Positions 54,366 to 63,982 are shown, numbered from the stretch's first letter. The stretch is 64,000 nucleotides of DNA from Cyanobacteriota bacterium (GCA_046052125.1 JBJOMY010000001.1:224001-288000), one strand, 5' to 3'. A program made the numbers and translations. Notes: generated from the letters alone by a model not told the origin.

Positions 54366-57300
54366 TCAAGAACCCCTTGCAGACTCCGCCTGAACATCTC
54401 CAGATGTCTGTTCAACGGATAGGCGGGTGAAGCGATCTTGTTCAGGCTGAGCAGCAATCCGGCACAACCGGTTGATCTGCTCCGCTTCTTCGATCGTGTT
54501 AGCCAGGCCGCTCGTTAATCCGGGGGAGCCCACCACGATCGACAGGCATTGAGCCCGACTGATCGCCACATTCAGGCGGTTTGGTGAGAGCAGAAAGCCG
54601 AGGCCTCTGGGTGCGTCATCGCCACTGCTCGCCGTGAGCGACAGGATCGCAACCGGTGCCTCCTGTCCTTGGAACTTGTCCACAGTGCCAACTCTGGCTT
54701 TGCCGTCCAAGCGCTGGCGCAGGCGGTTGACCTGCACGTTGTAAGGAGCGATCACGAGGATCTCTTCTGAGGTCAGCCTGCCGCTGCCCTTGGCATGGCT
54801 GTAGGAGCCACCAAGAAGTGCAGACACGATCTGATCGATCCGCTCGATCTCGGCCTCACTGGTCACGCTGCAGCCGCTGTGGTGCACCGGTTCAAACACC
54901 AAGCCTCGATCTGGCAGGGCACTCCCCGAGGCAGACAGGCAAGGTCTGGCCCACTGAATGGTGTTCACAGCGTTGGCCGGGCTGGCCTGCAGGCGCCCGT
55001 CATAGAAGAGCTCGGAGACCACCGCCGTGATCGAGGGCTCCATCCGCCAGCTGGTGGAGAGAAACACGCCCTGATCCGCAGGCACCACATGGGCGCCCTG
55101 CATCAGGTAGTCGAGGCAGGAATCCCCAGAGGAGCCGGGGTGATCAGCCTGGGAGGGCTGAGCCAGCTGCTGCTGATCACCCACCAAAAGAATGGAGCGG
55201 GCGCAGCGAGCCATCACCAGCAGATTCGCCAGTGACATCTGTCCGGCCTCATCCACCACCAGCAGATCGAACTGATCAGCCAACGCCTCACGGCAGAACA
55301 TCCAGGCGGTCCCGCCCACCACGGCCATCGCAGGGGTGTTGCCATCGGGATGCACACACGGAATCCCTTTACCAGTGAGTGCCTCCTCCTGTTTGCTGCC
55401 ACTGCACTTCACCACCGCGCCGCTGAGTCCGCGCTCCGCGCAGGTGGCCTTGGCCTTAGTCAGCAGATTGTTGATGGCTGCGTGGCTATTGGAGCTGATC
55501 GCCACCCGCTTGCCCCGCGCCACGAGATCTGCGATCACCTGGCCTGTCACGGTGGTCTTGCCGGTGCCAGGCGGGCCTTGCAGCGCAATGGTGCAGCCGC
55601 TGCGGTTCGCAAGGAAATCAGCCAAGCGTGCAGACACACAGGCCGGATCGGCCGCCACGGCGTCATTCAGCGGCTTGAGCTCCGGAAGGGTTTGGCGTTC
55701 GAGCAGCTGCACCATCGCCTGAGGAATCGGTGACGCACCGCTCAGCCAGGCATTGGCCTGCTCAAGCAGGCTGTCGCGCAACTTCTCGGTGATGTCGGCA
55801 GGAACAGCGATCAGGCTGCAGAGCTGTTCGGGAATGCCATCGCCGATGCCCTCAGCGCGCCTTTGATCCCGTTTGCTCCAGGGCAGCTTCAGGGTGACTT
55901 GGCCCCGTTCGGCGTCGAGCGCATCAATATCGAGTTTGAGGCCCGTGTCTGCAATTTCGAGCTGCGGGGCGCGATCGGGATCCCGCGCTCCGATCTTCAG
56001 GGGTTGGGATGGATCAAAGGAAAAGGTGTGATAGTCCGCGCCGGTGCGCTGGCTCTCGCGGGGCTGAACGCTGCGCCAGCGCGCTTCCGCGATGGATTCG
56101 CCGTCATCGATCAGATCAGCGGGGCTGAGTTCGGCCTTGTTGCGTCGATCGAAGTAGGCCCACCAGGCCACCTTGGCCTCACGGTGGTGAAAGGGCAGGA
56201 GCTGGGCGAGAAGCCTCTGAACACGCCAACTCAGTCCGCGTGGTCCGCACTCCTCTTGCGCCAACAGCAACGCTTCAGAGGCATTAGCCGCTGGATCGCT
56301 CTGCAGAGCCTCAGGAAGCTCGCCGATGAAATCCTCGCTCAGACGCTCCAGTGGCCAGGGTTCCTTTGCAGGCTGTTCTGCTTTGTCCTGCTCAAGTGGT
56401 TGCTCCGGTAGGCCTTGCCCACGCCGCAGATCGAGCAGCCAGTCGTGCAGAAAAACCGTGGACTCGCAGTCTTCCCGGTTGTAGTTCTCGATACCCAGAA
56501 GTAACGGGCTGCCTTCAGGTGCTTCACCCGGCAGGCGAGATTCGCCTGAGTTCTGCCAGTTGAGGTAGGCCACCAGCGAATCGCCGGCATTAGTCACCTC
56601 AGCCGCGCGCTGCTCCATGTAGAGGTGCTCCACCTTCTTGATCGAGTAGCTGGGCTCACCGAGCACGATCGAGCCGGTCACCGCCGGCAGCAGATCAACA
56701 AGCAGGCCTGAGCGCAGCCACTCATCGATCACCGCTTCTCGGGTGGAGTGTTGCTGCGCCAGCCGGCGCATGGCCGTTTTCTCGTAGCTGGCGTAGTGGT
56801 AGATCCTCAGGCCCGGATAGCGGCTTCGGCGTTCTTCCACCCAGTCCACCCAGGCTTCAAAGGCTTTCTTTTCTTCTGCTGGGGTGTGAGCCCACCAGGC
56901 CTTGAATTGAGGCGCGCTATCGGGAACCTCACGAAAGCAGGCACCGAAGAGGTACTCGAGCTTGGTGCCGGCCACCGCATCCTGAATCCCTTCCATGTCG
57001 AACCAGATGTCACCGGCATCGGCGGCTGGCAAAGCAGCCAGACCTTTGCCTGGGACAACCGGCCGCAGGCGATAGGCGGGACGGCCGTTGGCATCAGGGG
57101 GAGTGATCTGCAGCTGAGCCTGTTGGCGTAGCTCGTGCAGGGCTTCTGGATTCAGCCCAGGGACGGCGGTTCCTGCCGGTACAGCCGCCAGTTCTTCGAT
57201 GGTGGTGACGCCCGCAGCGCGGAGCTTGAGGCGCTGGTTCTGGCGCATGTTCGCCACCAGCATCAGGTCACGTTGATCAGCCAGTCGTTGCTCAATCCAC

Positions 57301-57953
57301 GCCGTCCAGCCGCCGTGATCTCCGGGCATGTCCTCAGGAACCTTCTGCGGATCAAACGCCTCTCGAAAGGCGCGGTAGCGCTGCCTCAGCGACTGATACC
57401 AGGCCCAGAACTGGTCGCTTCGGTAGCGCTGAAAGCGACCGCCGCCGAGGTAGAGCTCGAAGTGATCAGGCCGCTTGCCAAGAACTGGGGTGAGTAGTTC
57501 GCAGTAGGCCGAGGCCTGCACCAAGAAGGTCGTCTTGGGCTTTGAGGCGAGCTTGCACTCGATCGGGATGTAGCTCCACGCGCCTAAATCCGATGGCTCG
57601 TCGATGCGTCGTAGCAAGTCAGCGGAACCGCGCATCTCCTCGTTGCAGAGCGAGGCCTGATGGATGAAATCAAACCCCTCCGCCATCGCTGCTTTGGTGG
57701 CGGCATAGTCGGCTTGGTTTTGCTTCCCAGGTAGGCGAGCAACGCGATAGCCCTGGGCTTCGAGCTTGTCGAGCAACACCCGCTCGTGGCGGATGCCGTC
57801 ATCGAACAGTTGCTGATCGAGGGCACTGACTTCGGGCTTGACACCCGCAAATACTCCGCGAGCTTCGAGCTCCTCCCACCAAGCACCGATCACTGGGCTG
57901 CGGGAGAAGAGGGAGAGCTTGCTGGGGGTAATGAGAGGCTTGCGGACTTCCAT
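54366..57953 (-). CDS. TM0106-family RecB-like nuclease fused to an RNase H-like domain and SF1 (DNA2/NAM7/Upf1-like) helicase
   Basis: GSADLL...PIECK (PD-(D/E)xK); FDMEG...HYASYE...YSIKKVE...YNREDC; QGPPGTGKT, DEAGQ, VGDQQQL, APYNVQV, TVDKFQGQE, NRLNVAISRA. Confidence 0.9.
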   Translation of the reverse strand: MEVRKPLITPSKLSLFSRSPVIGAWWEELEARGVFAGVKPEVSALDQQLFDDGIRHERVLLDKLEAQGYRVARLPGKQNQADYAATKAAMAEGFDFIHQASLCNEEMRGSADLLRRIDEPSDLGAWSYIPIECKLASKPKTTFLVQASAYCELLTPVLGKRPDHFELYLGGGRFQRYRSDQFWAWYQSLRQRYRAFREAFDPQKVPEDMPGDHGGWTAWIEQRLADQRDLMLVANMRQNQRLKLRAAGVTTIEELAAVPAGTAVPGLNPEALHELRQQAQLQITPPDANGRPAYRLRPVVPGKGLAALPAADAGDIWFDMEGIQDAVAGTKLEYLFGACFREVPDSAPQFKAWWAHTPAEEKKAFEAWVDWVEERRSRYPGLRIYHYASYEKTAMRRLAQQHSTREAVIDEWLRSGLLVDLLPAVTGSIVLGEPSYSIKKVEHLYMEQRAAEVTNAGDSLVAYLNWQNSGESRLPGEAPEGSPLLLGIENYNREDCESTVFLHDWLLDLRRGQGLPEQPLEQDKAEQPAKEPWPLERLSEDFIGELPEALQSDPAANASEALLLAQEECGPRGLSWRVQRLLAQLLPFHHREAKVAWWAYFDRRNKAELSPADLIDDGESIAEARWRSVQPRESQRTGADYHTFSFDPSQPLKIGARDPDRAPQLEIADTGLKLDIDALDAERGQVTLKLPWSKRDQRRAEGIGDGIPEQLCSLIAVPADITEKLRDSLLEQANAWLSGASPIPQAMVQLLERQTLPELKPLNDAVAADPACVSARLADFLANRSGCTIALQGPPGTGKTTVTGQVIADLVARGKRVAISSNSHAAINNLLTKAKATCAERGLSGAVVKCSGSKQEEALTGKGIPCVHPDGNTPAMAVVGGTAWMFCREALADQFDLLVVDEAGQMSLANLLVMARCARSILLVGDQQQLAQPSQADHPGSSGDSCLDYLMQGAHVVPADQGVFLSTSWRMEPSITAVVSELFYDGRLQASPANAVNTIQWARPCLSASGSALPDRGLVFEPVHHSGCSVTSEAEIERIDQIVSALLGGSYSHAKGSGRLTSEEILVIAPYNVQVNRLRQRLDGKARVGTVDKFQGQEAPVAILSLTASSGDDAPRGLGFLLSPNRLNVAISRAQCLSIVVGSPGLTSGLANTIEEAEQINRLCRIAAQPEQDRFTRLSVEQTSGDVQAESARGS

Positions 57954-57956
57954 GTC

Positions 57957-59789
57957 TCACAGATCCCAGATGCCCTTCAAAAGTGATACGTATTCACTCT
58001 GATTCTTGCGAACAACATCTGGGGTCCAGCGATCTCCTGCGTTGAGAACTTTCGTTACCGAGGGGAAGGCTGCAACTTTACCGGTTTCATCTTTTCCGGC
58101 TTCATCTTTTCCGGCTTCATCGTCGTTGGCGTTCTTTCGCGACCGGCCCGTAAAATATACCTCTTTCTTTGTTTTAAAGTCATAGTTTTGCGCTTGCGAG
58201 TTCTTCCGCCTGGAAAGCAGCACAAGGTTCCCTATCTTATTCTTTAACTCATCATGATCGTATTCATTCCACTCGGCTTTCCAGTCCCGACTGAGCGTCT
58301 GCGGTGCAACGTGCTCAATCGACGCACGGCGGTGAGAAAGGCTAACGCTAATCCCTCCATCCGCGAGAGCAGAATCAAGCCTTAGCATCACATAGAAAGC
58401 ATGGGGTTCACCATAAAGACTTCCACTAATTATTTCCAGAACTTGTTCTGCATCTTTCTGATTAATAGACTGGTGGAGTGCGGTCAAAGCCTCCTGCTGG
58501 CTTCCGTCAACGGCGGTTAGTGCGGTCAGTATTGGGCCATACCGCCTAGCTCGCTGATTAACATTCTCGCCCAAGATCAGCGAAACAGCAGCCGTGCGCT
58601 CCAGTAGCCTGAAAAAGTCATGAACACCACCCATTTGATAGCGATTTCGACTTAAGAACGAGATAGCGGCGGGTTGCCAGTCTGAATTCCCAATATTCTC
58701 AAGAAGTGGTAAGTAAAGGCGATTAACCTTCTCCCTCCCATCCGGGTTGGGAGTCTCAATGGCCCTCTTTAGAATCAACTCATAGGCATCCGAACTCTCG
58801 ACCAGCACGCTTTCAACGAATTCTTTTGCCACGGCTGGCGTCAAGCTACCGCGGCCTTGGCTTCCGATTTGCAAAACGTCTTTCTTAAAATCGTCAAAGA
58901 GATTCTTGGTGGAGCGTCGCTTAGACTTGATTCGGTGTATGTGCGAGAAGAGAAGCTCGAAATATCGCCTCGACTCTGTGGGGTCATCAGATCCCGATGA
59001 AGCAAGCCTCGTGAGATCCGCTTCTTCTTGCTCCCAAATCTGATTTATATACTCGCGCTCTGTATCGTCGCCAAACTGCTCTAGTATCAAAGCTTTGATT
59101 AGGTCTGAGACTCCCAAAGAGAGCCCTCTATTATTCATCGTCGAAAAAATACGATAAGCACTTTCGAAGTCGGTGCTTGCAACTATTACAAGGCATGCCT
59201 TGTGCTTGACGAAGCCCAGAAAATCTCTGAGTCGGCATGTATCAATCCTGTCTTCAGAGGTAAACTCTTTTTGGATTTCATCCCGCATCAATAGCGCATT
59301 TGAGCGCATGCATTTCTGGCTAGAGGGGAGAACCGCCTCCATCTGGCCTAGAGAGTCAAACTCCTCTGCGCTCCGAATGAACTTATTGAAGAACCAATCG
59401 TCAGAGTTCTTGCCAGTAGATCTGAGCCTGAGGCCAGCGTACCTGCTGTTCGCAGATTCGCTGATTAAAAGAGCAGAAAGGTCAGGCCGATCTTTAACGT
59501 CCACGAGGCTTCGAATAGCGGCTAAGAGTATCGACAGGGTCGTCAGCCTTTGCTGGCCATCAACCACTTCTGCTTCGACTGACGACGAACTTCGCTTGAC
59601 AACAACAATGCTTCCCAGAAAATACTCTTGCTCTGGAGATTCCTCGAAAGCATCAAGAAGATCTTGAACAAGAGACTTTGCCTGCTCTTTCCCCCAGGCG
59701 TAAGGCCTTTGGTAAGCAGGAATAACAAACTGATAATGGCTTGGGCTCAGAATCTCATAGATCTTCTTATGCGCAGCCGAGATTGACAT
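57957..59789 (-). CDS. DUF262 + DUF1524 (GmrSD/SspE-like) putative modification-dependent endonuclease
   Basis: IPAYQRPYAW, VVDGQQRLTT, FSTMNNRG (DUF262); SIEHVAPQ...IGNLVLL...NSQAQN (HNH-like DUF1524); markedly AT-richer than flanks. Confidence 0.88.
   Translation of the reverse strand: MSISAAHKKIYEILSPSHYQFVIPAYQRPYAWGKEQAKSLVQDLLDAFEESPEQEYFLGSIVVVKRSSSSVEAEVVDGQQRLTTLSILLAAIRSLVDVKDRPDLSALLISESANSRYAGLRLRSTGKNSDDWFFNKFIRSAEEFDSLGQMEAVLPSSQKCMRSNALLMRDEIQKEFTSEDRIDTCRLRDFLGFVKHKACLVIVASTDFESAYRIFSTMNNRGLSLGVSDLIKALILEQFGDDTEREYINQIWEQEEADLTRLASSGSDDPTESRRYFELLFSHIHRIKSKRRSTKNLFDDFKKDVLQIGSQGRGSLTPAVAKEFVESVLVESSDAYELILKRAIETPNPDGREKVNRLYLPLLENIGNSDWQPAAISFLSRNRYQMGGVHDFFRLLERTAAVSLILGENVNQRARRYGPILTALTAVDGSQQEALTALHQSINQKDAEQVLEIISGSLYGEPHAFYVMLRLDSALADGGISVSLSHRRASIEHVAPQTLSRDWKAEWNEYDHDELKNKIGNLVLLSRRKNSQAQNYDFKTKKEVYFTGRSRKNANDDEAGKDEAGKDETGKVAAFPSVTKVLNAGDRWTPDVVRKNQSEYVSLLKGIWDL
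58081..58125. repeat. 3 x 15-bp in-frame tandem repeat in the DUF262-DUF1524 gene (DEAGK x2, DETGK)
   Basis: ccggtttcatctttt / ccggcttcatctttt / ccggcttcatcgtcg. Confidence 0.85.
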
Positions 59790-59814
59790 AAATAGCTTTG
59801 GTGTTGGATGAAGG

Positions 59815-60450
59815 CTAGATCGAAAGCGTCAGGGCTGCGAGTTTTCCACTAACAAACGCACCTGTATCAATTCCTATCCGATAGGGGTAGCGAGCCACTG
59901 AGTAATCGCTCCGGTAGGTGTGCCCATGCACAACGGTGAACGGCAGACCGTGATCACCCTTCAGAAACGGGCTGCGTATCCAGAGGAGATCTTCAGGCCG
60001 TTGAGCGGTCAGAGGCACGCCAGGACGGACACCCGCATGAACAAACAGGTAGGAACCGCGCTGCGTGACCAGCGGCAGGCGCTGCAGCCAATCACGGTGG
60101 TCTCGGGCTACGGGCAGGAACGCCACATCTCCACCGTTCCATTCCCAAAGCTCCGTGGCTTCGCCTGGGGTGTCCTCCGCAAGTGCGTCAAGCAGCATCT
60201 GCTCGTGGTTGCCCCGCAGCACCGTGACTCCTGCCAGCCCATAGGCCGCAGCGTTGTCCTGGAGCTCGCGCACGAGCTCAATCACCTCCAAGTCACCATT
60301 CGGCTCAGGGGAACGGTCGATCAGATCACCGAGCAGGATCAGCTCTGCTCCGCTCCCGAGGTGTGGCCAGAGCGCCTCGCGCAGCAACGTCGCGCAGCCA
60401 TGCACATCCCCGATCGCCACCACTGGGGTGTTGGTCTCAGTCGTTGTCAT
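59815..60450 (-). CDS. calcineurin-like metallophosphoesterase (PPP/PphA/lambda-PP-like Ser/Thr phosphatase)
   Basis: GDVHG, GDLIDR, RGNHE, FVHAG, VHGHT, IDTGA; ATG at 60450 overlaps the vWA stop. Confidence 0.9.
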   Translation of the reverse strand: MTTTETNTPVVAIGDVHGCATLLREALWPHLGSGAELILLGDLIDRSPEPNGDLEVIELVRELQDNAAAYGLAGVTVLRGNHEQMLLDALAEDTPGEATELWEWNGGDVAFLPVARDHRDWLQRLPLVTQRGSYLFVHAGVRPGVPLTAQRPEDLLWIRSPFLKGDHGLPFTVVHGHTYRSDYSVARYPYRIGIDTGAFVSGKLAALTLSI

Positions 60451-61690
60451 CAACCGCCTCCCACACGCTGAGGCTGGAGCGCAGCGATTCACGGCGCAGG
60501 CGCTTACGGCTGAGGTTGCGGTCCTGCTGCATCAGCGCACGTTTCTCGGCCAGGAGTTGCCGTTCGCGCTGGATCGCCGCGCTCTGAGGGAGGTCCGCGA
60601 GCCGTTCATCCATGGAGGCAAGGCTGAATAGCGCGCCCTGGAGATCGCCTTGATCCAGGGCCTCGATGGCCTGGCGGCGTTCACGGTTGGCCTGGAGCAG
60701 GGCGAATTGCTCAGCCACAACTGGATCGCACTCCAGATCCAACAGTTCAGCCTTCGGTTGCACCGGCAGGGTGAGGTGCTCCACCAGGCTCTGGCGACCC
60801 TGTTGCTCAGGGCTATCCCAGGCCAGGCGCACGCTGGCGATCTCCTGATTCGCGGCCCAGGCTGGAAGCTCCAGGCGCACACCCACGTGCAGCTCCTGGC
60901 CATGGCGCAGGTTGGGGAGCTGGAAGTTCCCGGCCACGGTCTGCGGCAGATCATTGAGCACATCGACCAGCTCGGCGCCGTGTTTGGCGCGGATGCCGAG
61001 GCTCACCTTGCGGCCGATCGTGCTCGCCAACCCCTGGAGCTCGCTGGCGTAGAGATCGGCAAGCTGCCTGGGGGATTCGATCTGCGCGAGGGTCCCGTCA
61101 CCTGCGGCGGCGATCGCACCCATCAGGTCTTCATCGAACCCGCTGCCCAGGCCAAAGGCGCTGGTGCTGATCCCCCGCTGCGTCAGCCCCTCCACCTTGG
61201 CGGCGATGGCGCCTGCCTCGGTGAGGCCTTCGTTGGCCTGACCATCGGAGAGCAGCATCACCCGGTTGAGCGCTGTTGGATCCAGCTGCTGCGCCACCTG
61301 GGTGGCACCGGCCAGCCATCCGTCGAACAGGGCCGTGCATCCACCAGCGTCGATCGTGTTGATTGCACTGATGAAGGTCAGCGGATCGCGCACCGGTTGC
61401 GAGGGCACCAGCACGTTCACCTCATCGTCAAAGGTGACGATCGCCAGCCGGTCACGCGCCGTGAGCTCACCGGCCAGGAAGCGGGCCGCTTTGCGGGCAT
61501 AGCTGAGCTTGCTCCCGGCCATAGAGCCGGAGCGATCGATCACCAGCGCCAGATTCAGCGGTGGCCGCGGGCGGGTGGACAGCTCTGGCGGCAACGGCGG
61601 AGCGCTGATCTGGATCAGCAGATCCAGGGTGGTGGCGCCATCAGCCGCCACCGCCGGCCGCAGCGGCCGGAAGTACAGGGAGGGTTGCAT
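60437..61690 (-). CDS. von Willebrand factor A (MIDAS) domain protein, YfbK-like
   Basis: PLNLALVIDRSGSM (DxSxS), GGCTAL, LLSDGQAN, FGLG..FDEDL; helical C-terminus. Confidence 0.9.
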   Translation of the reverse strand: MQPSLYFRPLRPAVAADGATTLDLLIQISAPPLPPELSTRPRPPLNLALVIDRSGSMAGSKLSYARKAARFLAGELTARDRLAIVTFDDEVNVLVPSQPVRDPLTFISAINTIDAGGCTALFDGWLAGATQVAQQLDPTALNRVMLLSDGQANEGLTEAGAIAAKVEGLTQRGISTSAFGLGSGFDEDLMGAIAAAGDGTLAQIESPRQLADLYASELQGLASTIGRKVSLGIRAKHGAELVDVLNDLPQTVAGNFQLPNLRHGQELHVGVRLELPAWAANQEIASVRLAWDSPEQQGRQSLVEHLTLPVQPKAELLDLECDPVVAEQFALLQANRERRQAIEALDQGDLQGALFSLASMDERLADLPQSAAIQRERQLLAEKRALMQQDRNLSRKRLRRESLRSSLSVWEAVDDND

Positions 61691-61749
61691 GATTTTGGTT
61701 GAGAAAAACGTTGGGTGATCGGTTCTGCTCGGCCGATCAGAGGAGGAAT

Positions 61750-62403
61750 TCAGTCCTGGTGATCGAGTTGCTCGCGCAGGCGGTCGATCAGTCGATTGAG
61801 CCAGGCCTCACGGCGGGAGCCCGCTGGCGGGATCGAGGCCGATTCGCTGAGGTGCAGCTCCACACCCGGCGCCAGGGAGAAGCGATGCCAGCGGCTCGAG
61901 GACGCACTGCTGCGGCCTGACATCCGGCTGGCCCGCAGCGAGGGCGAGCGACTGCTCAGCGGTGAGCCGAGCAGTGGCAACAGCGACGCTGATGCCTCGC
62001 TCTCGCCACTCGGGTCCGCCTGCAAGTTCTGCAGATAGGCCAGGGCATCGTTGCTGGGCTCCACGGATGAGGCGAGCTGAGCGCTCTCATCGAGTTGGCT
62101 CCACTGCTGCTGAAGTTCAGCGTCACTGCCCACCACCAGGGGGGCAATGGCCGAGAGGCTCAATCCGCGCCGGGCCAGGGTGCGAACCAAGAGCAACTGC
62201 AGCAGATGGCGCTGGCTGTAGAGCGCACGGCGCCCGTCTTTGCCGGGTCGATCGATCAGACCCTCTGTGGCATAGAGGCGCACCGTGCGCGGCGTGATCT
62301 CCTCTCCCAGCCGTTCTCCCGCCAGCTCGAGCAACTGGTCGAGGCCATAAGCAGCCTCATCAGCGCCGTGAGCGGAAGCAGAACCGGAGGGGAGCCTCGC
62401 CAT
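61750..62403 (-). CDS. MerR-family HTH protein
   Basis: YGLDQLLELAG...TPRTVRLYATEGLIDRP...ALYSQRHLLQL...RGLSLSAI; C-terminal WHRFSLAPGVELH; ATG at 62403. Confidence 0.85.
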   Translation of the reverse strand: MARLPSGSASAHGADEAAYGLDQLLELAGERLGEEITPRTVRLYATEGLIDRPGKDGRRALYSQRHLLQLLLVRTLARRGLSLSAIAPLVVGSDAELQQQWSQLDESAQLASSVEPSNDALAYLQNLQADPSGESEASASLLPLLGSPLSSRSPSLRASRMSGRSSASSSRWHRFSLAPGVELHLSESASIPPAGSRREAWLNRLIDRLREQLDHQD

Positions 62404-62409
62404 GCCCGA

Positions 62410-62455
62410 ATGATTACACGCTTGCACTGCAACTGTCAACATCCTGAGTAGGATG
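62410..62455 (-). promoter_or_regulatory. putative sigma70 promoter and operator for the MerR operon
   Basis: Minus strand TTGACA (62439-62434), palindrome TTGCA-G-TGCAA (62432-62422) in the spacer, TGTAATCAT -10-like region; second inverted repeat CATCCT-N4-AGGATG (62440-62455). Confidence 0.5.
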
Positions 62456-62475: not shown

Positions 62476-62703
62476 ATGCCTCCCCTTCTTGCTTCCCTGG
62501 CCGCTGCTGCTCTGCTCGCGCAGGCCAACCCCCTGATGATCCCCGCCAAAAACGGCAACACCTGCCCGGGCGGCACCAGCTACGCCGGTGCGGGCTACTG
62601 CAAGGTGCGCGGCAATGTTCAGTACTTTCCTGCCAAGAACGGCACGACCTGCCCGGGCGGTAGTTCCTATGCCGGCGCTGGCTATTGCAAGGTGCGCCAG
62701 TGA
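62476..62703 (+). CDS. small secreted protein with two Cys-containing repeats
   Basis: Signal peptide LLAQA; 2 x PAKNGxTCPGGxSYAGAGYCKVR. Confidence 0.75.
   Translation: MPPLLASLAAAALLAQANPLMIPAKNGNTCPGGTSYAGAGYCKVRGNVQYFPAKNGTTCPGGSSYAGAGYCKVRQ
62542..62697 (+). repeat. 69-bp direct repeat x2 (62542-62610, 62629-62697), conserved mainly at protein level
   Basis: Copies differ mostly at synonymous positions. Confidence 0.85.
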
Positions 62704-63365
62704 GCGCCTCAACCCCGGTGATCAGCGCCCGCTACGGAGAGGCCCTGCTCTGGGCAGAAGCGATCCACCGCGACCAGCGCCGTAAGGGCAAAGCCGTGCC
62801 CTACATCTCCCACCTGATCAGCGTCAGCGCCCAGGTATGGGAAGACGGCGGCACGGAAGATCAGGCCATCGCCGCCTTGCTGCACGACGCCATTGAGGAC
62901 GCCGGCCAGAGCCATGCCTCCATTGCAGAACGCTTTGGAGAAGCCGTGGCCGACATCGTGCGCGATTGCACCGACACCAGCGACAACGCACCACCGGGCG
63001 AGAAGGAGCCGTGGCTGCTACGCAAAACCCGCTACATCGCCTCCCTCGAGCACAAGCCCGAGGCCTCTCTGTTGGTGACAGCAGCCGCCAAGGCCCACAA
63101 CGCCGGCGACATGGTGCTCGACGCCAGGCGCGATCCAGCGATGTGGAGCAAGTTCAACGCTGGGCTCGAGGGATCGGCTTGGTATCTGCTGCGGATCCAC
63201 CAGCAGTTGAAACGCCAGCTGCCTCAGAGCCGTTCGGTGGAACGGCTCGGGGAAGCCGTGAGTGAAATCCTCGTGATGGACAGCTACAAACGCCTCGTGC
63301 CAGAGGGGTTCGCACCGGCTGTATGGGCAGCGGGATATGCGGAGCGACTAGGGGCGCAGGAGTGA
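62700..63365 (+). CDS. HD-domain protein, Mesh1/SpoT small alarmone hydrolase-like
   Basis: HRDQRRKG..VPYISHL, AALLHDAIED, CTD, AAKAHN; GTG overlaps the upstream stop. Confidence 0.85.
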   Translation: MSASTPVISARYGEALLWAEAIHRDQRRKGKAVPYISHLISVSAQVWEDGGTEDQAIAALLHDAIEDAGQSHASIAERFGEAVADIVRDCTDTSDNAPPGEKEPWLLRKTRYIASLEHKPEASLLVTAAAKAHNAGDMVLDARRDPAMWSKFNAGLEGSAWYLLRIHQQLKRQLPQSRSVERLGEAVSEILVMDSYKRLVPEGFAPAVWAAGYAERLGAQE

Positions 63366-63982
63366 TTCCCCTGTTCTTGCCTCTAGCAGCCGTTGCCCTA
63401 CTGGCCCAAACCCGCACCGCCACCGTGCTCTCCATCGGTGATGGAGACACCCTGCGGGTGCGCGAGGGCAGCCGCGTCCTGAACGTGCGCCTGGCCTGCA
63501 TCGATGCGCCGGAAACCAGTCAGGCACCCCATGGCGCCAGCGCCCGAACGCAGTTGCAGGTTCTTGCACCGGTTGGGTCAGCCGTTGAGCTGCGGATCAA
63601 AGCCACCGATCGCTACGGCCGCTCTGTGGCAGAGCTGAGCAGGAGCGGCCGCAACCTGAACCAGGCCCTGGTGGCAACCGGTGCAGCGTTTGTGTATTGG
63701 CATTACATCCAAGGCTGCGACCGCCAGACCTACAGCCGCCTGGAAACCGAGGCGCGGCTCAAAGGGCTGGGGGTGTGGTCCGTAAAGGGTGGAGTCCTGA
63801 GGCCATGGGACTACCGCTCGAAACAACGCCAACCCAGCAGCAATTCCTCTATCCCCTCAGGTCAGAAGTACACCTGTAGCCAGATCGGCTCGTACGACCG
63901 AGCACAGGTGCTGTTGCAACAGGGCCACAGCTATCTCGATCGCGATGGCGACGGCGTGGCTTGCGAGGGCTTACGGGGATAG
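63362..63982 (+). CDS. secreted thermonuclease (SNase) with C-terminal Excalibur Ca-binding domain
   Basis: Signal; GDGDTL, RLACIDAPE, DRYGR, PWDYR; TCSQ...LDRDGDGVACE. Confidence 0.9.
   Translation: MIPLFLPLAAVALLAQTRTATVLSIGDGDTLRVREGSRVLNVRLACIDAPETSQAPHGASARTQLQVLAPVGSAVELRIKATDRYGRSVAELSRSGRNLNQALVATGAAFVYWHYIQGCDRQTYSRLETEARLKGLGVWSVKGGVLRPWDYRSKQRQPSSNSSIPSGQKYTCSQIGSYDRAQVLLQQGHSYLDRDGDGVACEGLRG

Follow-up and report, generated by a model that had tools for sequence, protein, structure and literature searches.

The 64,000-nucleotide stretch of DNA from a Cyanobacteriota bacterium analysed here (the window, G000:C1:224001-288000, from a 2.64-Mb genome in 10 contigs) carries at 54366-62403 five open reading frames (ORFs), all on the minus strand and in the same direction, which encode a MerR-like helix-turn-helix (HTH) protein, a vWA protein, a PPP-family phosphatase, a GmrSD-like nuclease and a nuclease-helicase. 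The host is probably a freshwater picocyanobacterium. A reading made from the sequence alone (below, the sequence-only reading) had proposed that these genes form a single undescribed anti-phage operon. Comparison with related genomes leads us to a different view, in which the locus probably consists of three units placed head to tail in a defence island rather than of one fixed system: the merR-vWA-PPP trio, the GmrSD-like gene and the nuclease-helicase gene. Since the GmrSD-like gene lies in a foreign cassette that is replaced elsewhere, and since the units are separable, the five genes would not constitute one fixed system.

Gene order and the GmrSD-like cassette

The five ORFs of the array are:

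54366-57953, minus strand: nuclease-helicase ORF, 1195 amino acids (aa)
57957-59789, minus strand: GmrSD-like ORF, 610 aa
59815-60450, minus strand: PPP phosphatase ORF, 211 aa from its ATG; the longest ORF begins at a GTG, 60492
60437-61690, minus strand: vWA ORF, 417 aa
61750-62403, minus strand: MerR-like ORF, 217 aa from its ATG; the mechanical ORF extends to 62712

The sequence-only reading had described five co-directional minus-strand genes with intact catalytic motifs, and at this level it held up throughout. Coordinates and spacing were reproduced (59 bp between merR and vWA, a 14-bp overlap of vWA and PPP, 25 bp between PPP and GmrSD, and 3 bp between GmrSD and helicase), every motif that it had named was located in the translations, and Pfam and NCBIfam concur with its family labels for all five genes. 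The minus strand has no terminator-like site between the five genes, and a single weak one within the helicase gene. Contigs from other public metagenome runs span both the PPP/GmrSD junction (X3 record 13, X5 record 22 and X10 record 5) and the GmrSD/helicase junction (X3 record 12), so the arrangement is not an assembly artefact. Summed contig depth was lower for the GmrSD gene than for its flanks in four runs; contig depth cannot rank genes and was not used.

Domain and motif matches identify the GmrSD-like gene as a predicted single-gene type IV restriction enzyme of a known family. Pfam recognises GmrSD_N (E 1.2e-35, 123.9 bits, cutoff 33.2) and GmrSD_C (E 2.3e-20, 73.3 bits, cutoff 23) in the protein, which contains the motifs DGQQR (residues 77-81), IEHVAP (491-496) and NKIGNLVLL (517-525). 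PADLOC, of which only the hidden Markov models were used (v2.0.0, 2023; the models carry no curated cutoff), matched the protein along its whole length and fitted Orf5 (PDLC02686, 1.5e-120), a label for which PADLOC provides no description, better than HEC-06 (PDLC04157, 1e-62 over residues 3-546). These matches bear out the earlier assignment of the protein to a family of defence nucleases. The sections of Payne et al. drawn on here (bioRxiv 10.1101/2024.01.29.577857) describe HEC-06 as a GmrSD-like protein that defends as a single gene and loses this activity when DGQQR or EH is mutated, and document defence genes embedded in multi-gene systems for Hma. Like HEC-06, the protein studied here unites DUF262 and DUF1524 in one chain, has DGQQR and an EH-type HNH motif, and is encoded inside another gene set; unlike that of HEC-06, the host gene set is not Hma, the neighbours being a PPP gene and a nuclease-helicase gene, and the genes flanking GmrSD gave no PADLOC match to Hma.

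The composition and boundaries of the gene set it apart from its neighbours. Its GC content is 48.4%, compared with 61-67% in the four neighbouring genes and 65.4% in the window, and stays at 0.43-0.55 across the cassette in 150-nt windows. GC content at third codon positions (GC3) is 0.51 in GmrSD, 0.67-0.80 in the trio and helicase genes (together, the frame) and 0.82-0.88 in core genes of the window. Blastn comparison of the locus with the corresponding locus of the nearest relative, genome G497 (L067), found homology over 62800-59824 and 57935-54462 and none between, which delimits the following feature:

57936-59823, minus strand: cassette lacking DNA homology to G497 (blastn against L067); the only ORF inside is the GmrSD-like ORF

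The G497 homology breaks off no more than 10 nt from the PPP stop codon and restarts 18 nt inside the helicase gene. As GC content drops from ~59,900, a cassette carrying the 3' end of the PPP gene was considered, and was ruled out because the homology reaches 59824. GmrSD homologues are numerous (7129 at E <= 0.001 among 8000 scored), and the best non-self match among those scored is an unnamed metagenome protein with 74% identity, the closest named one having 47%. Eleven of 60 related genomes contained a GmrSD match at E <= 1e-8, the best with 33% identity over residues 5-272 only, and no close relative was found among the 60. Foreign composition, exact boundaries and the lack of a close relative in these genomes together argue that the GmrSD gene is independent cargo, and we interpret it as a recently exchanged cassette.

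Conservation of the trio, the nuclease-helicase and the slot between them

Of 29 loci with vWA homologues, 28 of them from other cyanobacterial families (38-48% identity), 27 have a merR gene directly 5' of vWA in the same orientation. The pair was found in 49 of 301 cyanobacterial genomes at E <= 1e-40, and the genes 3' of it in other cyanobacteria are diverse, with one homologous pair among 19 ORFs of at least 140 aa. Orthologues of the PPP gene (49-77% identity) occupy 33 places in 30 of 400 genomes of the family. In 24 of the 30 places fetched at +-10 kb, the order merR-vWA-PPP is maintained, in most of them vWA touches or overlaps PPP, and the PPP orthologues directly after vWA show 57-77% identity; the other six are solitary PPP genes or contig-edge fragments. 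Including genome G269, in which a small ORF (o143) is inserted, the trio is present at 25 of the 31 PPP loci examined. A search of genome contigs for PPP returned only one weak locus (26% identity, in an Ignavibacteria metagenome-assembled genome). By these comparisons merR-vWA qualifies as a conserved and widespread cyanobacterial pair and the trio as a picocyanobacterial module, in agreement with the sequence-only reading so far as it had grouped HTH, vWA and phosphatase as a module. PADLOC assigned none of its families to the MerR-like, vWA and PPP proteins (E <= 0.01).

The trio is itself not invariable. The same 400 genomes contain 49 loci with vWA orthologues of at least 61% identity. 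PPP is present in 26 of these loci and lacking in intact form in 23; merR is retained in 18 of these 23 (18 of 19 loci from the family and none of four from the genus of this genome), PPP remnants are present in three, and no helicase was found within the fetched stretch of any. The small ORF o143, which has no Pfam family, occurs at L012:2008-2439 (minus strand) and in L044, L068, L114, L121, L122, L100, L101 and L107. It directly follows vWA in five loci (with PPP on its other side in L044 and L068) and stands beside the helicase in three marine-type loci.

The 1195-aa protein is by its domains a predicted Dna2-like nuclease-helicase, in which a Cas4-like nuclease and an RNase H-like domain precede a UPF1/Dna2-type superfamily 1 (SF1) helicase. 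TIGR03491 (TM0106 RecB-like nuclease) matches residues 70-506 with 196.5 bits (cutoff 97.45), the PD-(D/E)xK motifs being SADLL (110-114), IPIECK (129-134) and QASAYCEL (146-153). RNase_H_2 matches residues 317-506 (E 1.5e-16), a third catalytic-looking module that the sequence-only reading had overlooked. The helicase part contains the Pfam domains AAA_11 and AAA_12 and the SF1 motifs GPPGTGKT (Walker A, 793-800), DEAGQ (901-905) and GDQQQL (925-930), with more at 1092-1098 and 1128-1134. Sequence matches in the PDB cover residues 791-1146 only (IGHMBP2 2e-20, UPF1 1e-17, Dna2 1.5e-14), and the PADLOC match to MkoA (2.3e-54) is limited to residues 877-1169 of 1195. The protein resembles Dna2 in placing a PD-(D/E)xK nuclease N-terminal to an SF1B helicase and differs from Dna2, TM0106 and MkoA in its extra RNase H-like domain. 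Our searches found no published function for the TM0106-family nuclease.

Helicase orthologues are present in 53 of the 400 genomes. In 12 of the 30 fetched PPP loci a full-length helicase gene (69-79% identity) lies 3' of the trio with strand and order unchanged (two of the 12 have one in-frame stop each), and short 5' remnants are left in two more. The linkage of module and nuclease-helicase that the sequence-only reading had assumed is thus only partial: 13 of 25 helicases of at least 67% identity, including the closest (G008, 87%), stand without a PPP orthologue in the vicinity, and a full helicase is missing after 10 of 24 trios, the same genera holding genomes with and without it. At helicase-only loci the upstream genes are low-GC or conflict-type genes that encode RmuC, a PolA-like/AAA_25 fusion, Nmad3 or a DUF6998/methyl-directed-REase-like protein; in G010 the helicase gene adjoins SbcCD-like genes, and L103 contains a duplicated 5' fragment of it. 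Trio-less helicase genes of the genus of this genome and of G560 (L003, L009, L002 and L097) lie near a LysR-type HTH gene and a gene for an AAA_33 protein of 700-766 aa with an N-terminal P-loop kinase-like domain, in one case with a WCX domain; these two genes may form a different regulator module that takes the same place.

Between PPP and helicase lies a slot of 0.7-4.1 kb, mostly of 45-52% GC, with the following contents:

GmrSD: this locus; L091 (39% identity, plus a 334-aa ORF without family)
PDC-S26 PD-(D/E)xK nuclease: L067, L088
UzuA (Uzume): L073
312-340-aa protein cluster: L072, L079, L081, L087, L093 (Pfam Mrr_cat match in L072 only)
McrB and McrC: L085, on the opposite strand
No cargo: L068, L084, L090

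Since the cargo varies from locus to locus, the slot is variable, and 11 of 13 frame loci hold a different cargo or none. The expectation that the five genes would be conserved as a unit is contradicted by this comparison, in which GmrSD is replaced by other defence genes or by nothing. Cargo has the direction of the frame in 10 of 11 cargo-bearing slots, this locus included, and ends close to the helicase start, at 3 bp here, from an 8-bp overlap to ~70 bp in six other loci and at ~290 bp in L072. Two small genes of normal GC, neither with a Pfam or PADLOC match, border the slot in other genomes and are both absent from this locus. The first, smallA (120-134 aa), lies directly 3' of PPP in nine loci whether or not the helicase is present (L067, L072, L077, L080, L081, L085, L087, L088 and L091), and the second, smallB (147-192 aa), directly 5' of the helicase in seven loci with or without the trio (L084, L086, L090, L008, L003, L009 and L002). 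In helicase-less loci the position after PPP can be taken by other genes: in L077 by one for a Leo dynamin-like fusion protein, in L075 by an integrase-like gene with an AAA_25 ATPase, and in L095 by a serine recombinase gene. We interpret the junction of trio and helicase as a hot spot for defence-gene exchange, and the helicase gene as a sporadic island gene by itself, often placed after smallB.

On the helicase side, homology begins at codon 6-7, in the stretch coding for (L)ITPSQLSL, and the first 3-6 codons vary by locus. This coding stretch is the only conserved DNA on that side. An attachment-site-like repeat at the slot edges was considered and not found, no dedicated repeat search having been made. 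In marine-type genomes (L099-L112), hairpin-like inverted repeats, TCCCTCAAnnnGAGGGAT or CCCAtttGGGTGAT, lie ~30-80 nt 5' of the helicase start and may be either a repeat element or an RNA motif with a regulatory role. Some low-GC slot ORFs are candidate new defence genes: L091:6394-7398 (minus strand, 334 aa) and L087:8483-9025 (minus strand, 180 aa) match no Pfam or PADLOC family, and L079:8671-9681 (minus strand) and its relatives, a cluster of 328-340 aa, have none beyond a distant link to the Mrr_cat protein of L072. The slot is a place in which to seek new defence genes in picocyanobacteria.

Promoter and putative switch of the first unit

Upstream of the MerR-like gene we found a conserved promoter-like element:

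62410-62439, minus strand: promoter-like site of the MerR-like gene, 10/12 consensus matches, with TG

It comprises TTGACA (62439-62434), a dyad TTGCA-G-TGCAA (62432-62422) inside the 18-nt spacer and TGT-AATCAT (62418-62410). The ATG of the MerR-like gene (62403) lies 7 nt past the -10 element, and the mRNA is on this account probably leaderless. All 25 loci compared, this one and 24 from the family, contain TTGAC(A/G), and 24 of them contain TGCAnTGCA, although the MerR-like proteins share only 48-74% identity. In 50 of 51 merR homologues TTGAC precedes the ATG by 30-42 nt, and in other cyanobacterial families the same layout has a dyad of the TTGACA-N7-TGTCA type. The site is probably a near-consensus sigma-70 type promoter with an operator-like dyad, giving a transcript that is leaderless and autoregulated. 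The sequence-only reading had proposed that the vWA-phosphatase pair gates the nucleases post-translationally; the conserved promoter and operator point instead to transcriptional control.

The MerR-like protein has an N-terminal winged HTH (MerR_1, Pfam E 2e-10, 41.1 bits, cutoff 21.6), joined through a Ser-rich disordered linker (~134-167) to a C-terminal module consisting of a conserved beta-hairpin and helix (W172...G180-x-E182...P192, alignment A1, 37 sequences). Its AlphaFold model is confident for the HTH and the long helix, the predicted local distance difference test score (pLDDT) being >89 for residues 21-110 and 171-210 and <50 for 134-167. In the vWA protein (VWA, Pfam E 4.7e-15), all five residues of the metal-ion-dependent adhesion site (MIDAS; D52-R-S-G-S56, T119 and D149) are invariant across 36 homologues. 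The model (mean pLDDT 86.1, predicted TM-score 0.77) shows a vWA domain, a beta-sandwich and, at the C-terminus, a bundle of helices, and its best Foldseek matches are 8s05 chains A/B (the ArnAB complex, E 6.8e-23, TM 0.64-0.70), 4fx5 and 5a8j (the ArnB paralogue vWA2, E 2.9e-19). The phosphatase (Metallophos, Pfam E 2.9e-13) is lambda-phosphatase/PrpA/ApaH-like, with the motifs GDVHG (14-18), GDLIDR (41-46) and GNHE (80-83).

For Sulfolobus, the parts of the sources on which we rely (PMC6509490, PMC7472852) describe phosphorylation of the ArnB C-terminus, phosphorylation-dependent binding of ArnA and dissociation of ArnA/B complexes upon dephosphorylation by PP2A, a PPP-family enzyme. The vWA protein resembles ArnB in the three-part architecture that PMC6509490 describes, in having a PPP-family phosphatase as a partner (functional in Arn, genomic here) and in its apparent gene-regulatory output. 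It differs from the Arn module in its MerR-like DNA-binding partner, which takes the place of the FHA/Zn-ribbon protein ArnA, in its bacterial host and in sequence (16-18% identity). Domain scans of the locus found no FHA gene and no linked kinase, and no Ser/Thr kinase domain was detected in the five genes or the scanned flanking genes. A predicted complex of the MerR-like and vWA proteins was graded as 'weak support', with a median ipSAE of 0.58 (0.58, 0.63 and 0.51) against 0.00 for the best of three controls, and runs sharing at least 37% of contacts with partner pLDDT of at least 63. Of 157 solved complexes 116 pass the ipSAE mark, as do 2 of 215 mismatched pairs, counts that hold only roughly here as custom alignments were used; at or below 0.60 lie only 18 of the 157 solved complexes and both passing mismatches.

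From these features a working model of the three units can be drawn. The MerR-like protein would bind the spacer dyad and autoregulate a leaderless operon; the ArnB-like vWA protein would bind this regulator, or set its state via phosphorylated Ser-rich segments; and the PPP phosphatase would reset the switch, with the kinase encoded elsewhere. The GmrSD-like protein would act alone, through NTP-dependent recognition (DGQQR) and HNH-type cleavage of modified phage DNA. Because only 25 bp lie upstream of its gene, with no promoter-like site, it may be expressed by read-through from the first unit. The nuclease-helicase would process or degrade DNA ends. To judge by the ArnB-like fold, archaea and bacteria may have vWA regulators under phosphorylation control in common, and merR-vWA with its leaderless promoter and dyad may represent a widespread uncharacterised cyanobacterial regulatory module, whatever the frame does.

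Readings of the array and its surroundings

Several observations weigh against the composite reading. A helicase gene follows 12 of the 24 trios, with remnants after two more, and none of the 23 vWA loci without an intact PPP; neither order nor strand varies where trio and helicase co-occur; cargo is packed tightly against the helicase start; and the trio-helicase block stands in up to four flank contexts, namely this genome, G497 (which has only the HD side in common with it), G539, and ten loci with both flanks in common. Two further points concern the trio itself. MerR-type activators typically have a -35/-10 spacer of 19-20 nt with the operator dyad inside it, and the 17-18 nt spacer found here agrees more readily with repression than with activation of the classic MerR kind. 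Nucleotides could instead be what the PPP enzyme hydrolyses, since the ApaH model scores equal those of protein-phosphatase models (ApaH 1.3e-11, PRK11439 1.1e-11, all NCBIfam scores being far under their cutoffs).

The genomic part of these observations would be expected if the array were one integrated, undescribed defence operon, in which a fixed merR-vWA-PPP(-smallA)/(smallB-)helicase frame carries interchangeable modification-dependent nucleases, a phospho-switch controls the whole operon and the helicase is a common downstream degrader for any slot nuclease. The co-orientation of cargo and the position of GmrSD, which lacks its own promoter-like site and has only 25 bp upstream and 3 bp downstream, agree with such an operon, and so do two parallels from the portions of the literature cited, one thematic in type II and III-A CoCoNuTs (PMC11090510) and the other the embedded defence genes known in Hma. 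We nevertheless regard this reading as considerably less probable than not: about half of the close helicases are trio-less, the helicase-less trios include both states inside single genera, each half has a separate small accessory gene (smallA, smallB), three loci have an empty slot, and unrelated genes lie upstream at the helicase-only loci. Since 10 of the 12 co-occurrences have common flanks, they represent one inherited arrangement, a single syntenic lineage, and thus few independent observations. In other cyanobacteria merR-vWA is found without a nearby helicase, and a search of 24 class-level genomes with the two proteins as queries turned up no adjoining pair. A regulated carrier, with a MerR-like repressor under a vWA/PPP phospho-switch and a slot nuclease that cuts first before the helicase degrades processively, is likewise only a tentative proposal. 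The obligate five-gene system of the sequence-only reading, in which a vWA-phosphatase pair and an HTH protein gate two nuclease effectors, could draw on the co-directional, tightly spaced genes, on their intact motifs and on G531 (L091), which holds the same five gene kinds in the same order. The GmrSD of G531 is, however, only 39% identical and is accompanied by two more ORFs (smallA and the 334-aa ORF), which argues for an independent GmrSD insertion; together with the foreign composition and exact cassette boundaries of GmrSD here, and the other cargo or none at most frame loci, the comparative data contradict this reading and leave it very improbable. It is also unlikely, if somewhat less so, that the frame is unrelated to defence, being a stress or signalling switch and a repair enzyme that flank a neutral insertion hot spot in a flexible island, an account that overlaps the composite one. 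It would suit the breadth of merR-vWA (49/301 genomes) with unrelated downstream genes such as one for a molybdopterin oxidoreductase, the precedent of ArnB in motility regulation (in the parts of the Arn sources used here), the lack of PADLOC matches to the trio, and a Dna2-like helicase found beside SbcCD-like genes in G010. It sits poorly with the sporadic occurrence of PPP (30/400) and helicase (53/400) in picocyanobacteria, with the GC3 of both halves, which is below that of core genes, and with recurrent defence neighbours: Hhe-like and ADP-ribosylglycohydrolase genes in G269, Leo in L077, and type III restriction-modification genes here and in L101.

The array was also compared with named systems. 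Excerpts of Bell et al. (eLife 2024, PMC11090510) define the TerY-P triad as vWA, PP2C phosphatase and Ser/Thr kinase, and describe type II and III-A CoCoNuTs as combining this triad with a McrBC-type type IV nuclease and a UPF1-like helicase. Membership of TerY-P was rejected, as the locus has no PP2C and no kinase, no PADLOC model, TerY-P included, matched vWA or PPP, and the vWA fold is nearest to ArnB. The likeness to TerY-P drawn in the sequence-only reading therefore survives as an analogy: a vWA protein with complete MIDAS is encoded beside a protein-phosphatase-like gene in a restriction/defence neighbourhood, but the phosphatase is of the PPP/calcineurin-like type and a MerR-like HTH protein is the third member. 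With type II/III-A CoCoNuTs the array shares co-directional genes for a vWA-phosphatase pair, a type IV nuclease and a nuclease-fused UPF1/Dna2-like SF1 helicase, whose core is UPF1/IGHMBP2/Dna2-like, CnuH being the UPF1-like helicase of CoCoNuTs. It differs in lacking the HEPN protein CnuE, in a nuclease slot that is variable here and fixed there, and in the Cas4-like and RNase H-like domains of its helicase. CoCoNuT membership was rejected in the absence from the locus of a CnuB/McrB GTPase with coiled coil and of CnuC/McrC, McrBC being present as cargo only in L085. The third candidate was Mokosh. This system is defined by an MkoA-type helicase and a PLD nuclease (MkoB, or fused in MkoC), and it was rejected on the partial MkoA match (877-1169) and on finding no PLD domain in the locus. 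The earlier remark that the five-gene combination was not recognised as a named system stands for the array, and not for GmrSD itself, which is in a known family. In literature searches, which did not cover supplementary material, neither the trio nor the merR-vWA pair nor the TM0106-helicase fusion turned up, and 'MerR' is absent from the text of Kaur et al. 2020.

For annotation, this suggests labelling the GmrSD gene as a stand-alone type IV restriction enzyme and giving the five genes no single-system name. Should the frame be functional, it would represent a bacterial counterpart to both vWA/phosphatase-controlled restriction-helicase arrays and operon-embedded defence genes, themes known only separately, and the site of embedding would serve as a genuine exchange slot in which many type IV nucleases are sampled.

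The array is one edge of a ~22 kb defence island that extends from 54366 to ~76000 in window coordinates, a placement based on low GC3 and flanking defence genes. One flank consists of core genes on the plus strand (bifunctional pyrF/E and an ABC-2 transporter). The other diverges from the MerR-like gene, with a small secreted-looking ORF, an HD_4 hydrolase gene and a staphylococcal-nuclease-like gene, followed past the window end by genes for a trypsin-like protease, an SNF2 helicase, DUF4391, a type III methyltransferase and a type III restriction enzyme (PADLOC MTase_III 4.1e-201, REase_III E 0); GC3 is under core level throughout this flank. The defence setting suggested by the sequence-only reading is thus confirmed by a type III restriction-modification cluster with SNF2 and DUF4391 just outside the window. 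A scan of 30000-64000 found no tRNA genes and hence no hint of tRNA-linked integration.

Some genes of the island recur elsewhere. The cluster of SNF2 (HKD+Snf2-like) helicase, DUF4391, type III methyltransferase and type III restriction enzyme genes occupies L012:4913-13859 (G000:C1:290913-299859), and the same four genes (57-89% identity) abut a helicase orthologue in G597 (L101). The divergent ORF at 62476-62703 (plus strand, 75 aa) combines a signal-peptide-like N-terminus with two repeats that contain Cys (AKNGxTCPGGxSYAGAGYCKVR), overlaps at its end with the HD gene's start and lies within the stretch of DNA homology to G497 and G539. It is followed by the HD_4/RelA-SpoT-like hydrolase gene (62685-63365, plus strand, 226 aa), possibly for a small alarmone hydrolase, and by a gene for a staphylococcal-nuclease and Excalibur protein (63323-63982, plus strand); HD_4 and staphylococcal-nuclease genes also adjoin the merR block or the helicase in other picocyanobacteria. 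In G269 (L044, G269:C1:6000-25999), merR-vWA-o143-PPP lies between genes for a 2002-aa Hhe-like protein, composed of DUF4011, an SF1 helicase and an MTES_1575 nuclease, and an ADP-ribosylglycohydrolase, with Rad52 and Gp157-like prophage-type genes nearby.

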